A stretch of DNA of 64,000 nt, from NCBI RefSeq assembly GCF_000026545.1, contig NC_011601.1. The stretch is one strand, 5' to 3'. Each line of letters begins with the position of its first letter. The stretch's first letter is position 1. The stretch is from Escherichia coli O127:H6 str. E2348/69. GTDB taxonomy: Bacteria; Pseudomonadota; Gammaproteobacteria; Enterobacterales; Enterobacteriaceae. A program made the translations under genes and the position numbers. This document shows, piece by piece, positions 36,908-44,695 of this stretch. The notes beneath the pieces were generated by a model. It saw only the letters and a list, made by a program, of their open reading frames with translations, had not been told where the DNA came from and did no database searches.

Positions 36908-38334
36908 TATTTATCTCCTAGCAAATCGCGCGCGCCCCAGTGCGGAAAGTGGCGGCGAACCAGAGCATTCAATTCCAGTTCGAATACACTGAATTGAGAT
37001 GGCGCAGCAGTTGCCTGGCTAACTGGCTCGTGCACCATACCGGCACCTACGGTCACATTGCTCAGGCGATCGATTAAAATCAGCCCACCGGTCACCGGAT
37101 TTTGCTGATAACGATCTAACACCAGTGGCTCGTCAAAAGTGAGATCCACCAGGCCGATGCCGTTCAGCGGCAGGTTTTCAACTTCGCGTTGGGTAAGGTT
37201 ATTGATATCAACCTGATAACGAATGCCATCAACACGAGCACGCGTCTTCTTACCGGCAATTTTGATGTCATAACTCTGGCCCGGGGAAAGCGGCTGTTCC
37301 GCCATCCATACCACATCCACCGACGCGCTCTGCACAGCCGGTAACGTTTCGTCTGCCGCCAGCAGCAGATCGCCACGGCTAATGTCGATCTCATCCGTCA
37401 GCACCAGGGTGATCGCTTCTCCGGCAAAGGCTTCTTCGCGATCGCCATCAAAAGTCACGATCCGCGCGACGTTTGATTCCACACCAGAGGGCAGCACTTT
37501 GACACGTTGCCCGACTTCCACGCGACCGGATGCCAGCGTTCCGGCGTAGCCACGAAAATCGAGATTCGGACGGTTAACGTACTGCACCGGGAAGCGCATT
37601 GGCTGAGCATCCACCACTCGCTGGATCTCCACGGTTTCCAGCACTTCCAGCAGTGTCGGACCGCTGTACCACGGCATACTTTCACTTTGCGAAGCCACGT
37701 TGTCGCCTTCCAGTGCGGAGAGCGGCACAAAGCGGATATCCAGATTACCCGGCAGCAGCCCGGCAAAAGTCAGATAATCTTCACGAATACGGGTGAACGT
37801 CTCTTCACTGTAATCCACCAGATCCATTTTGTTGATCGCCACGACCAGATGTTTGATCCCCAACAGTGTGGAGATAAAACTGTGACGACGGGTTTGATCG
37901 AGCACGCCTTTACGGGCATCGATCAGTAAGATCGCCAGTTCACATGTCGATGCGCCAGTCGCCATATTGCGGGTGTACTGCTCGTGCCCTGGGGTGTCGG
38001 CGATAATAAATTTACGCTTCTCGGTAGAGAAATAGCGGTAGGCCACATCAATAGTGATGCCCTGTTCGCGCTCAGCTTGCAGGCCGTCCACCAGCAGTGC
38101 CAGATCCAGCTTTTCGCCCTGGGTGCCGTGACGCTTACTGTCGTTATGCAGCGATGAGAGCTGATCTTCGTAGATTTGGCGGGTATCGTGCAGCAGGCGA
38201 CCAATCAGGGTACTTTTGCCGTCATCGACGCTACCACAGGTCAGAAAACGCAGCAGGCTTTTATGTTGTTGCGCAATCATCCAGGCTTCGACGCCGCCTT
38301 CATTGGCGATTTGTTGTGCAAGTGCGGTGTTCAT
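36907..38334 (-). CDS. cysN: Sulfate adenylyltransferase subunit 1 (GTPase)
   Basis: 475 aa, EF-Tu-like GTPase motifs. Confidence 0.95.
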
Positions 38335-38335
38335 C

Positions 38336-39244
38336 TTAAAAATACCCCTGACGTTTTTTCAGCTCCATAGACCCCGCCTGGTCGCGGTCAATCACGCGGC
38401 CCTGACGTTCACTGGTGGTGGAAACCAGCATCTCTTCGATGATCTCCGGCAGTGTTTGTGCATTTGACTCCACCGCACCGGTCAGCGGCCAGCAGCCCAG
38501 CGTACGGAAACGCACCATCCGTTTTTTAATCACTTCGCCCGGTTGCAGGTCGATACGGTTGTCATCAATCATCATCAACATACCGTCGCGTTCCAGAACC
38601 GGACGTTCCGCAGCGAGATACAGCGGCACAATGTCGATATTTTCCAGCCAGATGTATTGCCAGATATCCTGCTCGGTCCAGTTAGAGAGCGGGAAGACGC
38701 GGATGCTTTCGCCTTTGTTAATTTGCCCGTTGTAGTTGTGCCACAGCTCCGGGCGCTGATTTTTCGGATCCCAGCGATGGAAGCGGTCACGGAAAGAGTA
38801 GATTCGCTCTTTAGCGCGGGATTTCTCTTCGTCACGGCGCGCGCCACCGAAGGCGGCATCAAAACCGTATTTGTTCAGCGCCTGTTTCAGGCCTTCGGTT
38901 TTCATAATATCGGTATGTTTCGCGCTGCCGTGTACGAATGGATTAATCCCCATCGCCACGCCTTCCGGGTTTTTATGCACCAGCAGCTCGCAGCCGTAGG
39001 CTTTCGCCGTACGATCGCGGAACTCATACATCTCGCGGAATTTCCAGCCGGTATCGACATGCAGCAACGGGAAAGGCAGCGTACCTGGATAAAACGCCTT
39101 GCGCGCCAGATGCAGCATGACGCTGGAATCTTTACCGATAGAGTAGAGCATCACCGGATTTGAGAATTCTGCAGCCACCTCGCGAATAATGTGGATGCTT
39201 TCCGCCTCCAGTTGCCGCAGGTGGGTAAGTCGTTTTTGATCCAT
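38336..39244 (-). CDS. cysD: Sulfate adenylyltransferase subunit 2
   Basis: 302 aa, PAPS-reductase-like fold. Confidence 0.95.
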
Positions 39245-39495
39245 AACCGTTCCTTTGCAATACCGCTATTTTCTTGCCATCAGATGTTTCGACTATAGGG
39301 AGCGTAAGAGAACGAATGAAATTACCAATTAGAATGAGTAGTTCCTTAACGGAATAACGATTTGGCAAAGCTAATATCAAAAAGTGCTTAAGGCACCGGA
39401 TTTCGGGCGTTTAGGAAGATTTGAAATTGTTTTAGCGCAGCGGCAGTTTCATACTATGGCGGTAAAAAAATTTGCATGGTATTTAAGGACTCACT

Positions 39496-40533
39496 ATGTT
39501 TTCCGCATTGCGCCACCGTACCGCTGCCCTGGCGCTCGGCGTATGCTTTATTCTCCCCGTACACGCCTCGTCACCTAAACCTGGCGATTTTGCTAATACC
39601 CAGGCACGACATATTGCTACTTTCTTTCCGGGACGCATGACCGGAACTCCTGCAGAAATGTTATCTGCCGATTATATTCGCCAACAGTTTCAGCAAATGG
39701 GTTATCGCAGTGATATTCGGACATTTAATAGTCGGTATATTTATACCGCCCGCGATAATCGCAAGAGCTGGCATAACGTGACGGGAAGTACGGTGATTGC
39801 CGCTCATGAAGGCAAAGCGCCGCAGCAGATCATCATTATGGCGCATCTGGATACTTACGCCCCGCTGAGCGATGCTGACGCCGATGCCAATCTCGGCGGG
39901 CTAACGTTACAAGGAATGGATGATAACGCCGCAGGTTTAGGTGTCATGCTGGAACTGGCTGAACGCCTGAAAAATACGCCTACCGAGTATGGTATTCGAT
40001 TTGTGGCGACCAGCGGCGAAGAGGAAGGAAAATTAGGCGCTGAGAATTTACTCAAGCGGATGAGTGACACCGAAAAGAAAAATACGCTGCTGGTGATTAA
40101 TCTCGATAACTTAATTGTTGGCGATAAGCTGTATTTCAACAGTGGCGTAAAAACACCTGAAGCAGTAAGGAAATTAACGCGCGACCGGGCGCTGGCAATT
40201 GCCCGCAGCCATGGAATTGCCGCCACCACAAATCCAGGTTTGAATAAAAACTATCCGAAAGGCACCGGGTGTTGTAATGACGCAGAAATATTCGACAAAG
40301 CCGGTATTGCTGTACTTTCGGTGGAAGCGACTAACTGGAATCTTGGCAATAAGGATGGTTATCAGCAACGCGCAAAAACAGCCGCATTCCCTGCAGGAAA
40401 TAGCTGGCATGACGTAAGACTGGATAATCAACAGCATATTGATAAGGCACTTCCTGGAAGAATAGAACGCCGCTGCCGTGATGTTATGCGGATAATGCTA
40501 CCGCTGGTGAAGGAGCTGGCGAAGGCATCTTAA
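39496..40533 (+). CDS. iap: Alkaline phosphatase isozyme conversion aminopeptidase Iap
   Basis: 345 aa, signal peptide and M28-family peptidase motifs. Confidence 0.9.
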   Translation: MFSALRHRTAALALGVCFILPVHASSPKPGDFANTQARHIATFFPGRMTGTPAEMLSADYIRQQFQQMGYRSDIRTFNSRYIYTARDNRKSWHNVTGSTVIAAHEGKAPQQIIIMAHLDTYAPLSDADADANLGGLTLQGMDDNAAGLGVMLELAERLKNTPTEYGIRFVATSGEEEGKLGAENLLKRMSDTEKKNTLLVINLDNLIVGDKLYFNSGVKTPEAVRKLTRDRALAIARSHGIAATTNPGLNKNYPKGTGCCNDAEIFDKAGIAVLSVEATNWNLGNKDGYQQRAKTAAFPAGNSWHDVRLDNQQHIDKALPGRIERRCRDVMRIMLPLVKELAKAS

Positions 40534-40632
40534 TGGGTTTGAAATGATTACTCCCTTGCCTGCAGGAAATCAATGCCACCAGAAACAGAGTATAAAAAAG
40601 GGTGCAGGAGACCAAACCATCACAATTCAGTA

Positions 40633-40651
40633 CGCGGGGTTTTACCCCGCG
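40633..40651 (-). terminator. Stem-loop (cgcgggg-tttta-ccccgcg) immediately 3' of the hok pseudogene
   Basis: 7-bp perfect stem read from the sequence, located just after the hok stop codon on the minus strand. Confidence 0.4.
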
Positions 40652-40657
40652 TGGTGG

Positions 40658-40809
40658 CTACTTCTTCGATTCGTAAGCGAGAACTGCCTTAAACTCCATA
40701 CCACGTTCTCTGATACTCAACTCACACAACGAGTCGCCTACCATCAACGTGAATCCCAGTACTGTACAACACAGTACGATGATTGCCACAAGGGCATATT
40801 TTGTCAGCA
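40658..40809 (-). pseudogene. hok: hok-family (HokE-like) type I toxin gene, inactivated by a 1-nt deletion
   Basis: Minus-strand translation [23 protein letters not shown] then a stop, followed out of frame by [26 protein letters not shown], which matches the Hok/Gef family (Hok[15 protein letters not shown]...LVGDSLCEF...[12 protein letters not shown], from memory). Restoring one G in 'atg(g)tagg' gives an intact 50-aa ORF. Confidence 0.7.
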
Positions 40810-40828
40810 TGTCTGTGTAAGTTCACAG

Positions 40829-41900
40829 AGATATTGCAATTGCCTCCGGATAAGTAAGGGGAGATTGCACTATGCAAATGCAGCATCTGATGGTTGGCTA
40901 TCCTAAGTACTACCAAACGGCCGATTATGCGTTGAGGCTTTCAGTGATGGCTGATATAGCAACAATGAGAATGAAGGCTCTGCACTTCTGGGATAAACAC
41001 GGTATTTCTGCAGCTTCTGAAGCCTTTGGCGTGTCCTGCCGCACGCTTTACTGGTGGCGTCAGTTACTGAACAAGGAAGGACCTGAGGGGCTAATCCCGC
41101 ACAGTAAGGCACCTCTGGTGCGACGAAAAAAACACTGGCATCCCGATGTGCTGAAAGAGATTCGACGCCTCAGGACAGAGCTGCCGAACCTCGGTAAAGA
41201 GCAGATTTTTGTTCGCCTGAAGCCCTGGTGCGAACAGCGCTATCTGGCCTGTCCGAGTGTTTCCACCATCGGCAGAATGATCGCTGCCGCACATGATAAA
41301 ATGCGGATGATACCTGTGCGTCTGGGATCGCGGGGGAAGGCACTGCTTGTCAAAAAGCGGTCTGCCAAACCCCGCAGGCCAAAGCACTACCGCCCGGTAA
41401 AGACAGGTGAGCTCATTGGGATGGACGCCATTGAGCTCAGAATGGGCGAACTGCGTCGCTATGTCATCACCATGATCGACGAATGCAGCAATTACGCGCT
41501 GGCGCTGGCTGTGCCGTCACTCAACAGTGATATCGTCAATCACTTCTTCAGCCGCGCAGCCCGGTTGTTCCCGGTCGGTATCAGCCAGATAATCACAGAT
41601 AACGGAAAAGAGTTCCTGGGAAACTTCGACAAAACGCTGCAGGAAGCCGCTATCAAACACCTCTGGACCTATCCCTACACGCCAAAAATGAACGCTATCT
41701 GTGAACGTTTTAACCGGACGTTAAGAGAGCAGTTTATTGAATTTAATGAGATTTTACTCTTTGAAGATCTGGCGCTATTTAACCAGAAGCTGGCGGAATA
41801 TCTGGTGCTGTATAACAGCAAAAGACCCCACAAGGCGCTCGCACTAATGACGCCCGTGGAATATATTTTAAAAGAGAATAAAAATTGCAATATGTGGTGG
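40829..41900 (+). mobile_element. Approximate extent of an IS481-family-like insertion sequence; boundaries tentative
   Basis: Single DDE (rve) transposase ORF. Candidate terminal inverted repeats 'atattgcaatt' at the left (about 40829) and its reverse complement within 'aaaaattgcaatatg' at about 41886-41900. No clean target-site duplication was found. Confidence 0.4.
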
Positions 41901-42146
41901 ACCCATACAATGTCTTGCCTCCTTGCAAAGAAGAGACTAACATCCGAATTGCTTAGGTTCGAACGTAGGCCTCAGGTTGATAGAAATATCGCCTGGGGCT
42001 TTTGTCCATCTGGAACCTCGCGAATGCTTAACGCCAGACAGCCTCAAGCACCCAACGCCATTCTATACCTGTTAATTTTCCCTGCGATGTTCACCTTTAA
42101 ATGCCGGAATGCTGCTCGCAAAATAAAAACGCCCCATCATTTCTGA
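40872..42146 (+). CDS. DDE-type (rve/integrase core) transposase with N-terminal HTH, IS481-family-like
   Basis: HTH (ISAASEAFGVSCRTLYWWRQ), DDE residues in GMDAIE / ITDNGKEF / ERFNRTLRE, and C-terminal KRPHKALALMTPVEY. The last ~80 codons of the 424-aa ORF may be read-through into flanking DNA. Confidence 0.7.
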   Translation: MQMQHLMVGYPKYYQTADYALRLSVMADIATMRMKALHFWDKHGISAASEAFGVSCRTLYWWRQLLNKEGPEGLIPHSKAPLVRRKKHWHPDVLKEIRRLRTELPNLGKEQIFVRLKPWCEQRYLACPSVSTIGRMIAAAHDKMRMIPVRLGSRGKALLVKKRSAKPRRPKHYRPVKTGELIGMDAIELRMGELRRYVITMIDECSNYALALAVPSLNSDIVNHFFSRAARLFPVGISQIITDNGKEFLGNFDKTLQEAAIKHLWTYPYTPKMNAICERFNRTLREQFIEFNEILLFEDLALFNQKLAEYLVLYNSKRPHKALALMTPVEYILKENKNCNMWWTHTMSCLLAKKRLTSELLRFERRPQVDRNIAWGFCPSGTSRMLNARQPQAPNAILYLLIFPAMFTFKCRNAARKIKTPHHF

Positions 42147-42174
42147 CAGAGGCGTTTAATTTATCCGGCAATAT

Positions 42175-42909
42175 TTACCCTTCGTGTAATCCACATTCCC
42201 TTTTTAAGCCAAAGAAACGCGTTTCTTCTTCCGCCATGCCGGGTTCCCATTTACGGGTTGTATGGGTATCGCCCACCGATAAATATCCTTCATCCCATAA
42301 TGGGTGATATTTCAGGCCATGTTTTTGCAGGTACTGATAAATAGTTCGGTTATCCCAGTCGATAATCGGCAGCACTTTAAATACGCCACGCTGAATTGCC
42401 AGCACCGGTAAATTGGCGCGACTGCCGGATTGTTCACGGCGCAGGCCAGCAAACCAGGTTTGCGCATTCAGTTCTTTCAGCGCCCGGTTCATCGGTTCGA
42501 CTTTGTTGATGTCATTGTACTTTTCAATGCCTTCAACGCCCTGCTCCCACAGTTTGCCGTAGCGTGCTTCCTGCCAGGCGGCGCTTTCGGTAGCACGATA
42601 CACTTTCAGGTTGAGCTTGAGTTTGTCCGTTAACTCGTCAATAAAGCGGTAGGTTTCCGGGAACAGATAGCCGGTATCGGTGAGGATCACTGGAATATCC
42701 GGGCGAATCTGATTCACCAGATGCAGACTCACCGCCGCCTGAATGCCAAAGCTGGAAGAAAGTACATATTCACCGGGCAGATTATCCAGCGCCCAGGCTA
42801 CGCGGCCTTCAGCGTCCAGTTTTTCCAGTTGGGCGTTAGTTTCCGCCAGCGCCAGAATCCGGTCTACCTTTGGCAGTTCGTTCAGGGCGTTTAGATCGAG
42901 TTTGGACAT
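42175..42909 (-). CDS. cysH: Phosphoadenosine phosphosulfate reductase (244 aa)
   Basis: Conserved [21 protein letters not shown] start; the longer six-frame ORF runs through a REP element and was rejected. Confidence 0.95.
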
Positions 42910-42930
42910 AAGTTCCTCACTGTTTGCCTT

Positions 42931-42966
42931 GCCTGATGCAACGCTTACACGTCTTATCAGGCCTAC
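42931..42966. repeat. REP (repetitive extragenic palindromic) element between cysI and cysH
   Basis: gcctgatgcaacgcttacacgtcttatcaggcctac matches the E. coli REP consensus. Confidence 0.7.
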
Positions 42967-42982
42967 AAGACCAGGCTGATGG

Positions 42983-44695
42983 TTAATCCCACAAATCGCG
43001 CGCCGGATCGAGCACCGGGCGAATGATGCCCGCACGCACCGTAAAGTCGCCGAAGCCTTCACCCACTTCGCGCTCTTTCGCCCAGCGCCCTATCAGTTCA
43101 TCAAGCGACGCCAGGATTTCCGACTCGGTGATGTTTTCTTTATACATCCGTGGGATACGTGTCCCAATGCGGTTGCCGCCAAGATGCAGGTTGTAGCGAC
43201 CCGGCGCTTTCCCCACCAGACCCACTTCCGCCAGCATCGCGCGACCACAACCGTTCGGGCAGCCTGTTACACGCATCACGATATGCTCATCGCTGACACC
43301 ATGTTTCGCCATTAAATTATCGATGTTGTCGATAAAAGACGGCAGGAAACGCTCCGCTTCCGCCATCGCCAGCGGGCAAGTCGGGAATGACACGCAGGCC
43401 ATTGAGTTTTCACGCTGCGGCGTGACGGCATTCATTAACCCGCTCTCTTTGGCGATCTTCTCGATCTTCGCTTTCTCGCTTTCCGGCACGCCGGCGATGA
43501 TCAGATTCTGGTTCGCCGTAATGCGGAAATCACCTTTGTGGATCTTCGCGATCTCCAGCAGGCCAGTTTTCAGCGGGCGCCCCGGATAATCAAGAATTCG
43601 ACCATTTTCGATAAACAGCGTCAGGTGCCAGTTATCATCAATGCCCTTAACCCAGCCAATACGATCGCCGCGTCCGGTAAACTCATACGGGCGAATCGGC
43701 TCGAATTTGATCCCCGCGCGACGCTCAACTTCCGCTTTAAACGTCTCAACCCCCACGCGCTCCAGCGTGTATTTGGTTTTGGCATTTTTACGATCGGTTC
43801 GGTTACCCCAGTCACGCTGAGTCGTCACGACGGCTTCTGCCACCGCCAGCGTATGCTCCAGCGGCAGATAACCAAACTCACTCGCCGTGCGGGCGTAGGT
43901 TTTCTTGTTGCCGTGCTCGATGGAAAGCCCACCGCCCACCAGCAGGTTAAAGCCCACCAGCTTGCCGTTTTCGGCGATCGCCACGAAGTTCATGTCGTTG
44001 GCGTGCAGATCGATATCGTTCTGCGGCGGGATCACTACCGTGGTTTTGAACTTACGCGGCAAATAAGTCTGACCGAGGATCGGTTCTTCATCGGTGGTGG
44101 CGACTTTTTCCTGATCGAGCCAGATCTCCGCATACGCGCGGGTACGCGGCAGCAGATGTTCAGAAATTTTCTTCGCCCATTCATATGCTTCCGCATGCAG
44201 CTGCGACTCGTAAGGGTTCGAGGTGCAGAGTACGTTACGGTTCATGTCGTTGGCGGTCGCCAGCGCATCAAGACCGACCGAGTGCAGCATCTGATGCACC
44301 GGTTTGACGTTCTTTTTCAGAATGCCGTGGAACTGGAATGTCTGGCGGTTGGTCAGGCGAATGCTGCCATAGATGGTGTTTTCACCGGCAAATTTGTCGA
44401 TCGCCTGCCACTGTTTAGTGGTAATCACCCCACCCGGCAGACGACAGCGAAGCAGCATCGCGTGACGTGGTTCCAGCTTCTGTTCAGCACGTTCGGCGCG
44501 GATGTCGCGGTCATCCTGCTGATACATGCCGTGGAAGCGGATCAACAGGAAGTTATCACCCTTAAAGCCGCCGGTCAGACCGTCATTTAAATCTTCCGCA
44601 ATGGTGCCGCGCAGGTAGTTGCTTTCAAGCTTCATGCGCTCGGCGTCTGTCAGTTTTCCTTCGACCACTAAAGGTCCTGGATGTTTTTCGCTCAT
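42983..44695 (-). CDS. cysI: Sulfite reductase hemoprotein beta subunit
   Basis: 570 aa, siroheme/4Fe-4S Cys motifs. Confidence 0.95.

Follow-up and report, generated by a model that had tools for sequence, protein, structure and literature searches.

The hokX/sokX locus of Escherichia coli O127:H6 strain E2348/69 is split by an insertion sequence (IS) at the start region of the toxin gene, the toxin open reading frame (ORF) itself is unmutated, and we consider it very likely that the toxin is silent in this arrangement. The analysis covered a 64,000-nucleotide stretch of DNA of this strain (contig NC_011601.1), referred to here as the window, in which the intact ORF, the bounds of the IS with its flanking duplication, and the displaced hok leader and sokX gene can be read directly. 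It had been proposed in the original prediction that this hok gene is disabled by a single-base deletion, and the main value of the present work lies in correcting this view, as the hokX ORF needs no 'repair'.

The IS was delimited by alignment to an uninterrupted allele (L002), whose junction reads GGAGGCAAGACATGCTG within the longer stretch ...TTTGCAGGGAGGCAAGACATGCTGACA... The window aligns to this allele on both sides of a 1095 bp insert, located at positions 40815..41909 on the plus strand, which starts with GTGTAAGTTCACAGAGATATTGCAATT..., ends with ...AATTGCAATATGTGGTGGACCCATACA and is bounded by AGACAT repeats. On the minus strand these two copies of the target-site duplication occupy 40809..40814 on the toxin side and 41910..41915 on the leader side. 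As the duplicated hexamer ends with the A and the T of the hok ATG, the start codon is complete again next to the toxin ORF. With the last IS base at 40815 and the A of the ATG at 40810, the IS stops 4 nt before the start codon; the original prediction had rightly located an IS-like element just upstream of hok, but had placed it at a distance of about 20 bp. Bounds of 40831-41893, derived from an 11 bp inverted repeat, were also considered and rejected, as they are 16 bp off at each end when compared with the empty-site alignment. The terminal inverted repeats have the form TGTA...ATATTGCAATT on both sides, with an IR core of ATATTGCAATT/AATTGCAATAT, and the element is a compact IS, for which 6 bp duplications were verified at nine sites.

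The element is in effect a member of the IS481 family, within the ISKpn28 group. Its product aligns with positions 2-283 of the 284 in the NCBIfam IS481 transposase model NF033577 at 221.6 bits, marginally short of the curated cut-off (224), and contains the Pfam domains HTH_32, rve and rve_3 (HTH plus DDE); RefSeq names sister copies 'IS481 family transposase'. The transposase ORF (40872..42146, plus strand), annotated by RefSeq as a pseudogene, is divergent from hok and has 346 codons within the IS, without an internal stop, followed by 79 codons that run across the hok leader and sokX. The C-terminus is set by the insertion site, with 79 extra codons here and 12 at a hokD site (L012); it is because the ORF ends in flanking DNA that most copies are RefSeq pseudogenes with a 'missing C-terminus'. 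Any read-through transcription of the transposase gene would, at the present site, cross the hok leader in the Sok direction. Some E. coli genomes (hits H128-H130) contain isolated fragments of 36-60 bp, without a transposase, that match one end of the IS at 100% identity, and these are probably remnants of IS-mediated deletions. In ISfinder, elements below about 95% DNA identity are regarded as different. ISKpn28 from Klebsiella pneumoniae, likewise an IS481-family element of about 1.1 kb with a single DDE transposase, shares about 75% nucleotide identity with the IS described here (75.3-75.4% for RefSeq 'ISKpn28 family' copies), and by this sequence comparison the two are distinct elements of the same subgroup. 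The published inverted repeats of ISKpn28 are identical to the IR core given above (PMC6101004).

The locus is the known hokX/sokX, the lesion is of a known kind, and the arrangement has essentially been catalogued already. It has been reported that hokX sits between cysH and iap and is IS-inactivated in E. coli B (PMC7232551), and that hok and sokX lie beside cysH in 90% of uropathogenic E. coli (UPEC), the others having sokX alone, as K-12 does (PMC12736100). In many strains the iap-cysH region holds the type I-E CRISPR-Cas locus. In the window, iap and cysH are 1.6 kb apart (39496-42909) with neither cas genes nor a CRISPR array in between, and the RefSeq order is iap, Hok/Gef protein, transposase pseudogene, cysH. 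Almendros et al. (2014) described hok/sok arrangements with an 'uncharacterized ISu' at iap-cysH, proposed that the CRISPR-Cas I-E region is remodelled by IS elements, and noted that the cas-less iap-cysH arrangement is typical of phylogroup B2 strains (PMC3903273). Their arrangement C, a cas-less iap-hok-IS-cysH layout with the IS at the cysH-distal end of IG1, matches E2348/69, and the IS studied here is most likely their ISu. However, the published description of ISu is silent on two features that E2348/69 shows, namely that the IS is located at the hok start codon and that the ORF is cut from its leader, and the exact IS position at the start codon is not stated in the literature searched. 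A joined-flank search found the uninterrupted locus in 4,146 of 5,426 complete E. coli genomes, and 35 of the 5,426 carry the IS at hokX; elsewhere hokX/sokX has the same position beside cysH, the same leader and sokX and, in thousands of genomes, the same Hok protein.

These 35 genomes might descend from a single ancestral insertion at hokX that was spread by recombination, a process that is frequent in E. coli; sampling bias or selection after insertion would then account for any link between the element and the hok and ldr genes. The genomes fall into three backgrounds, in which the IS-bearing locus is cas-less (E2348/69 and RM14723), lies beside cas3-E1 (O103:H2) or lies beside IS421 (strain E2). 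When E2348/69 is compared with O103:H2 or E2, the IS is identical at 1095 of 1095 positions, whereas the adjoining leader differs at 17 of 265 positions and cysH at 21-25 of 735. The IS is thus 100% identical among backgrounds whose flanks differ by 4-7%; had the IS diverged at the rate of the flanks, it would show about 46 differences, against the 0/1095 observed. In strain E2 the flanks match the uninterrupted BL21 allele, and differences begin only about 38 nt from the junction on the leader side and about 66 nt from that on the hok side. E. albertii has the same junction, with 116 of 117 positions identical in the IS but only 144 of 153 in the hok coding sequence (CDS); this was the only match of an IS-end 24-mer across species-representative genomes. 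As the IS is identical while its flanks have diverged, repeated insertion is favoured, and these comparisons argue for several insertions at the same nucleotide rather than for a single inherited event. In RM14723 (L007, 3865-3875) the IS is likewise at hokX, and the genome is without 8 bp, CAAGACAT, at the right end of the IS, including the leader-side duplication; this loss may have come about by a microdeletion beside the IS or by a separate event.

The element is also found at other toxin genes. Our sample of insertion sites was drawn from eight best places in complete genomes, taking the best place per genome, and from 87 metagenome contigs, which over-represent common strains; it yields about 29 distinct sites, and two loci, L021 with a possible hokB-like flank and L024, are left without a class. 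At least 9 of the approximately 29 sampled sites precede a type I toxin gene, lying 0-16 nt before its start codon, and at these sites the transposase gene is always divergent from the toxin gene. They comprise hokX, hokD, a ykgM-linked hok, a hok at the end of a P2-like prophage, the hok of R1/F-type plasmids, a HokE-type hok, two more Hok genes and ldr (the loci with the pattern being L006-L012, L017, L051, L062, L064, L073, L088, L094 and L105-L107). The Hok peptides at these sites match Hok models with E-values of 3e-6 to 8e-30, and the Ldr call is taken from the RefSeq annotation, NCBIfam having no Ldr model. Among complete E. coli genomes, the IS is found at the hokD junction in 54, at the ldr junction in 18 and at the ykgM-linked hok junction in two, in addition to those with the hokX junction. 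The plasmid-hok junction is present on at least five E. coli or E. albertii plasmids at 98-99% identity. The HokE-type site was seen in one metagenome contig only, and a query with the hokE junction yielded nothing beyond cross-matches to the hokX site (about 90% identity). Full-length ISKpn28-like relatives, which are 74-75% identical to the element studied here, sit at the corresponding place in hok genes on a Klebsiella IncU plasmid and an Enterobacter IncF plasmid (L106/L107).

About two thirds of the sampled sites are not toxin genes, and what is seen for toxin initiation regions is a preference and not a rule. ISKpn28 itself has been found at position +91 of mgrB under colistin selection (PMC6101004). 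In a preprint, the ISKpn28 transposase was reported to co-localise with FlmC/DUF5431, which is the mok-equivalent of the F-plasmid hok, and this was left uninterpreted. No description of a preference of IS481 elements for hok or other type I toxin genes was found in the literature searched, although the element may have a name and a recorded target note in ISfinder.

The target sites share a motif. The 6 bp duplication starts with A in 27 of 28 clustered sites and with AG in 16 of 28, and the two bases before the duplication are CA in six of eight reconstructed targets, and the target is thus asymmetric, roughly (G)CA|AG(G/A). In hok loci this motif coincides with the conserved block that contains the hok Shine-Dalgarno (SD) sequence and, as judged by eye, the sok -35 element; taken alone, it is too low in information to explain the concentration of insertions at toxin genes. 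As the oriented motif is also present at non-toxin sites, it is a property of target recognition and not a result of selection.

Based on these observations, we tentatively suggest, judging the chance to be a little short of even, that a subgroup of IS481 elements comprising this IS and its ISKpn28-like relatives preferentially inserts, in a fixed orientation, at the SD/start regions of type I toxin genes, namely hok genes on chromosomes, prophages and conjugative plasmids and the unrelated ldr, so that the toxin ORF is cut from its leader while the antitoxin small RNA gene and its promoter are left intact. Explaining the pattern by descent and recombination is unlikely. This explanation draws some strength from the sample, which is not exhaustive, takes one best place per genome and is biased by the metagenome contigs, and from the consideration that insertions which disarm a toxin should be well tolerated and could be enriched by selection. 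However, it has to contend with an IS that shows no differences between diverged flanks, with the flanks of strain E2 and the junction in E. albertii, with 74-75% identical elements at the equivalent position of plasmid hok genes in two other genera, and with a duplication that begins with A, in a fixed orientation, at non-toxin sites as well. Selection after insertion could still contribute to the pattern, but it leaves the oriented motif at non-toxin sites unexplained.

Returning to the locus in E2348/69, the parts of the hok mRNA that precede the ORF have been displaced by the IS. The leader of the hok mRNA, as far as the start codon, is described by the Rfam sok model RF01794. This model matches over its full length (model 1-157) at 41904-42053 on the minus strand and scores 104.6 bits, the gathering score being 59; the match lies on the same strand as hok and 1.1 kb upstream of its ATG, and the original prediction was correct in suggesting that the IS separates hok from the mok/sok region. 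The final six bases of the match (41904-41909) are IS sequence, TGTATG, standing in the place of the start codon. We therefore delimit the orphaned leader, with the mRNA 5' end, Sok target and SD, as 41910..42053 (minus strand), from the 5' end GGGTGC at 42053 to beyond the SD sequence AAGGAGG at 41918-41924, which now runs into IS sequence. A G-to-A change private to E2348/69 is found at about position 41923 on the minus strand, where the orphaned SD region has GCAAGGAGG in place of the GCAGGGAGG seen in six of six other alleles aligned. The remaining Rfam matches in the region 38000-44000 (naRNA4, ctRNA_p42d and sR19) are far below their gathering scores; the naRNA4 match, at 24 bits against a gathering score of 59.5, corresponds to a weak REP-like palindrome at 42930-42962 on the plus strand in the cysH-cysI intergenic region.

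The antitoxin gene appears to be intact. The K-12 non-coding RNA sokX (b4701) aligns over 57 nt to 41953-42009 on the plus strand with 54 matches and three mismatches (score 51), and the sokX gene is placed at 41951..42009. Its putative promoter, read by eye on the plus strand, consists of a -35 element TTGCCT at 41915-41920 and a -10 element TAACAT at 41938-41943, with a spacer of 17 nt and a distance of 7 nt to the mapped sokX start. The putative -35 element starts with the final base of the target duplication and abuts the right end of the IS, and the sokX promoter thus appears to have been spared by the insertion with zero bases of margin. At the hokD insertion the same promoter-sparing geometry can be seen by eye (GGCA|AGGAGA). 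A probable hok promoter region at 42060..42101 (minus strand), likewise read from the sequence and weakly supported, as our consensus scan missed it, contains TATAGAAT at 42060-42067, which is 6 nt ahead of the 5' end given by the Rfam match.

On the other side of the IS, the former 3' end of the hok mRNA can be read at 40590..40651 on the minus strand. It comprises the stem-loop CGCGGGGTAAAACCCCGCG (40633-40651), which is intact in the window, an fbi-like element GGTCTCCTGCACCC (40600-40613) and a T-run (40590-40599). The fbi-like element pairs with GGGTGCTTGAGG at the mRNA 5' end (42042-42053) with a computed duplex energy of -24.3 kcal/mol; we assign the two as probable fbi and tac elements by their likeness to those of the R1 hok mRNA. 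What would have been a single contiguous mRNA of leader, mok/hok and fbi is disrupted by the 1095 bp of IS between leader and ORF. The mok-like upstream ORF (uORF) is also affected, and as a result of its fusion to the IS it now has 54 codons (41779..41943, minus strand). In uninterrupted alleles this uORF has 12 codons (ATGTTAGTCTCTTCTTTGCAGGGAGGCAAGACATGCTGA / MLVSSLQGGKTC and stop, L002 1735-1779) and its stop codon overlaps the hok ATG (ATGCTGA). It is much shorter than classical mok frames and, judged from its position relative to Sok, it is mok-like and may couple hok translation. No ORF of at least 20 amino acids overlapping the hok start was found in the intact allele. A TTG-initiated ORF of 36 codons (41937-42047) ends 25 nt before the hok ATG of the uninterrupted allele.

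According to the mechanism that we propose, the IS481-family element transposed into the translation-initiation region of hok and duplicated AGACAT, which would have recreated the start codon and so kept a complete ORF at one end of the IS, and left the promoter, the 5' tac element, the start of the mok-like uORF, the Sok target, the SD sequence and sokX with its promoter 1.1 kb away. SokX and a truncated leader transcript could still be made. As the hok promoter, leader and SD are detached from the ORF, the toxin ORF, being left with no recognisable promoter or ribosome-binding site, would most likely be silent at the level of both transcription and translation. The bases ahead of the ATG now read ACTTACACAGAC, with no purine-rich SD within 15 nt. 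The only sigma-70-like site that a crude consensus scan found in the region 40550-42200 is inside the hok CDS, and none was found that reads from the IS toward hok, which is weak evidence as the same scan missed the native hok and sok promoters. In plasmid R1, hok is translated only from the processed full-length mRNA, in a manner coupled to mok, and Sok blocks the mok start.

Alternatively, hok might have been rewired and be expressed from an outward promoter in the left end of the IS or by antisense read-through. In other species, IS481-family elements are a source of outward or hybrid promoters; hok may be served by a weak promoter at the end of the IS or by transcription that runs antisense through the transposase gene, and the Hok protein sequence is undegraded. 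Its identity to the protein of uninterrupted alleles would fit a recent insertion and, equally, continued selection on the ORF. Nevertheless, we consider such expression quite improbable, as the IS end has no minus-strand sigma-70-like site in the scan described above, the ATG has no SD close by and the transposase gene points away from hok. In addition, Hok made without regulation should be toxic, as the leader through which Sok exerts its control is no longer attached to the ORF. A silent but intact toxin gene therefore remains our preferred reading.

With regard to the coding sequence itself, hokX occupies 40658..40810 on the minus strand and encodes 50 amino acids followed by a stop, as supported by the ORF list, the translation, Pfam and RefSeq. 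In the original prediction, the ORF was placed at 40658-40809; a Hok-family ORF is indeed present there, with a true end at 40810, one base further on. It had also been stated that translation stops after the first 23 residues (...GFTLM), that the remainder lies in the -1 frame, and that a re-inserted G restores a 50-amino-acid protein. The N- and C-terminal peptides quoted in support are both present in the translation. However, translation of 40655-40810 (minus strand) gives a single open frame of 50 codons and then a stop. The window reads GATGGTAGG at the hok site, and a string search of the whole window found GTTGATGGTAGGCGAC once, at 40733-40748 on the minus strand, and the one-G-shorter string GTTGATGTAGGCGAC nowhere. 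The G that was to be re-inserted, evidence for which the prediction itself had named as counting against it, is already in the window sequence, and the 'frameshift' is a misread GG dinucleotide. A true 1 bp deletion (atgtagg for atggtagg) that breaks the frame after residue 23 is practically excluded, as nothing in the sequence supports it beyond the fact that both quoted peptide halves are real, the deleted string is absent, the 50 codons form one frame, the hokX region is 100% identical in three independent E2348/69 assemblies, and RefSeq annotates an intact Hok/Gef protein of identical sequence (WP_000956458.1), the same protein that uninterrupted hokX alleles encode. As there is no single-base deletion, the notion of two independent lesions is also wrong, and the IS is the only lesion. 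The locus had moreover been discussed in the context of hok decay in K-12, but the strain is E2348/69, to the three assemblies of which the region is identical.

The designation of the protein as a HokE-like Hok/Gef toxin was well founded. The Pfam HOK_GEF model (PF01848) matches over its full length (1-42 of 42) to residues 5-46 with an E-value of 6.3e-10 and 38.9 bits, and 40 of the 50 residues (80%) are identical to those of a HokE-type peptide. In NCBIfam, HokX falls below the curated cut-offs of both the HokA model NF007290 (53.0 bits against 89) and the Hok-subfamily model NF007279 (39.5 bits against 73). By these profile scores, HokX is a Hok-family member that belongs to a separate hokX lineage and is neither HokA nor a member of the plasmid-type subfamily.

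Other hok loci show both similarities and differences. In K-12 the hok ORF is absent and only the leader and sokX (b4701) are kept, whereas E2348/69 keeps the ORF. In the K-12 strain MG1655 (L005, 2886800-2888400), homology to the hokX locus extends as far as GGAGGCAAGACATG|, one base off the point at which the IS is inserted in other strains. The K-12 sequence past this breakpoint, TGTATATCAC..., was considered as a relic of an IS end and rejected, scoring 14 against a shuffle mean of 13 and maximum of 19. The breakpoint is compatible with the proposal of Almendros et al. that hokX was lost, and cas-E2 gained, through a deletion or replacement mediated by an IS. In E. coli B and BL21 a different IS (IS421/IS186) is inserted at the 3' stem-loop, which is intact in E2348/69. 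This stem-loop is a second recurrent hot spot, with IS4-family IS421/IS186 elements inserted at CGCGGGGGTAAAACCC|ATAAGCGC... in BL21, strain E2 and E. albertii (L004 1923-2116, L008 and L017 14680-14700). The elements at the K-12 loci hokA, hokC and hokE reportedly lie just downstream of the hok ORFs, whereas the IS in E2348/69 is at the start codon. They belong to a family other than the IS481 group found here; these three loci, with IS150/IS186, likewise have an intact toxin ORF and are made non-functional by an IS rather than by a coding mutation (Pedersen & Gerdes 1999, as cited in PMC7232551). The hok/sok system of plasmid R1 shares with hokX the Hok/Gef peptide, the RF01794 leader, the antisense Sok and the complementary mRNA ends. 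In contrast to R1, the present locus is chromosomal and its mRNA is physically split by the IS, and the mok frame, which in R1 runs deep into hok, has in the intact hokX allele only its 12 codons, with the stop over the hok ATG.

An IS at the start codon is in line with the standard route by which chromosomal hok loci decay, which is already documented, IS-mediated inactivation of such loci being attributed to Pedersen & Gerdes (1999) as cited in PMC7232551. The apparent preference of an IS481 subgroup for toxin initiation regions is the one part of this analysis that seems worth following up. If it is true and has not been described before, these elements would be IS naturally specific for disarming addiction or toxin modules, or for using them as safe landing sites. 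Such targeting would bear on the loss of plasmid addiction modules, on the frequent presence of IS in chromosomal hok loci, and on the proposal of Almendros et al. that IS elements remodel the neighbouring CRISPR-Cas I-E region.
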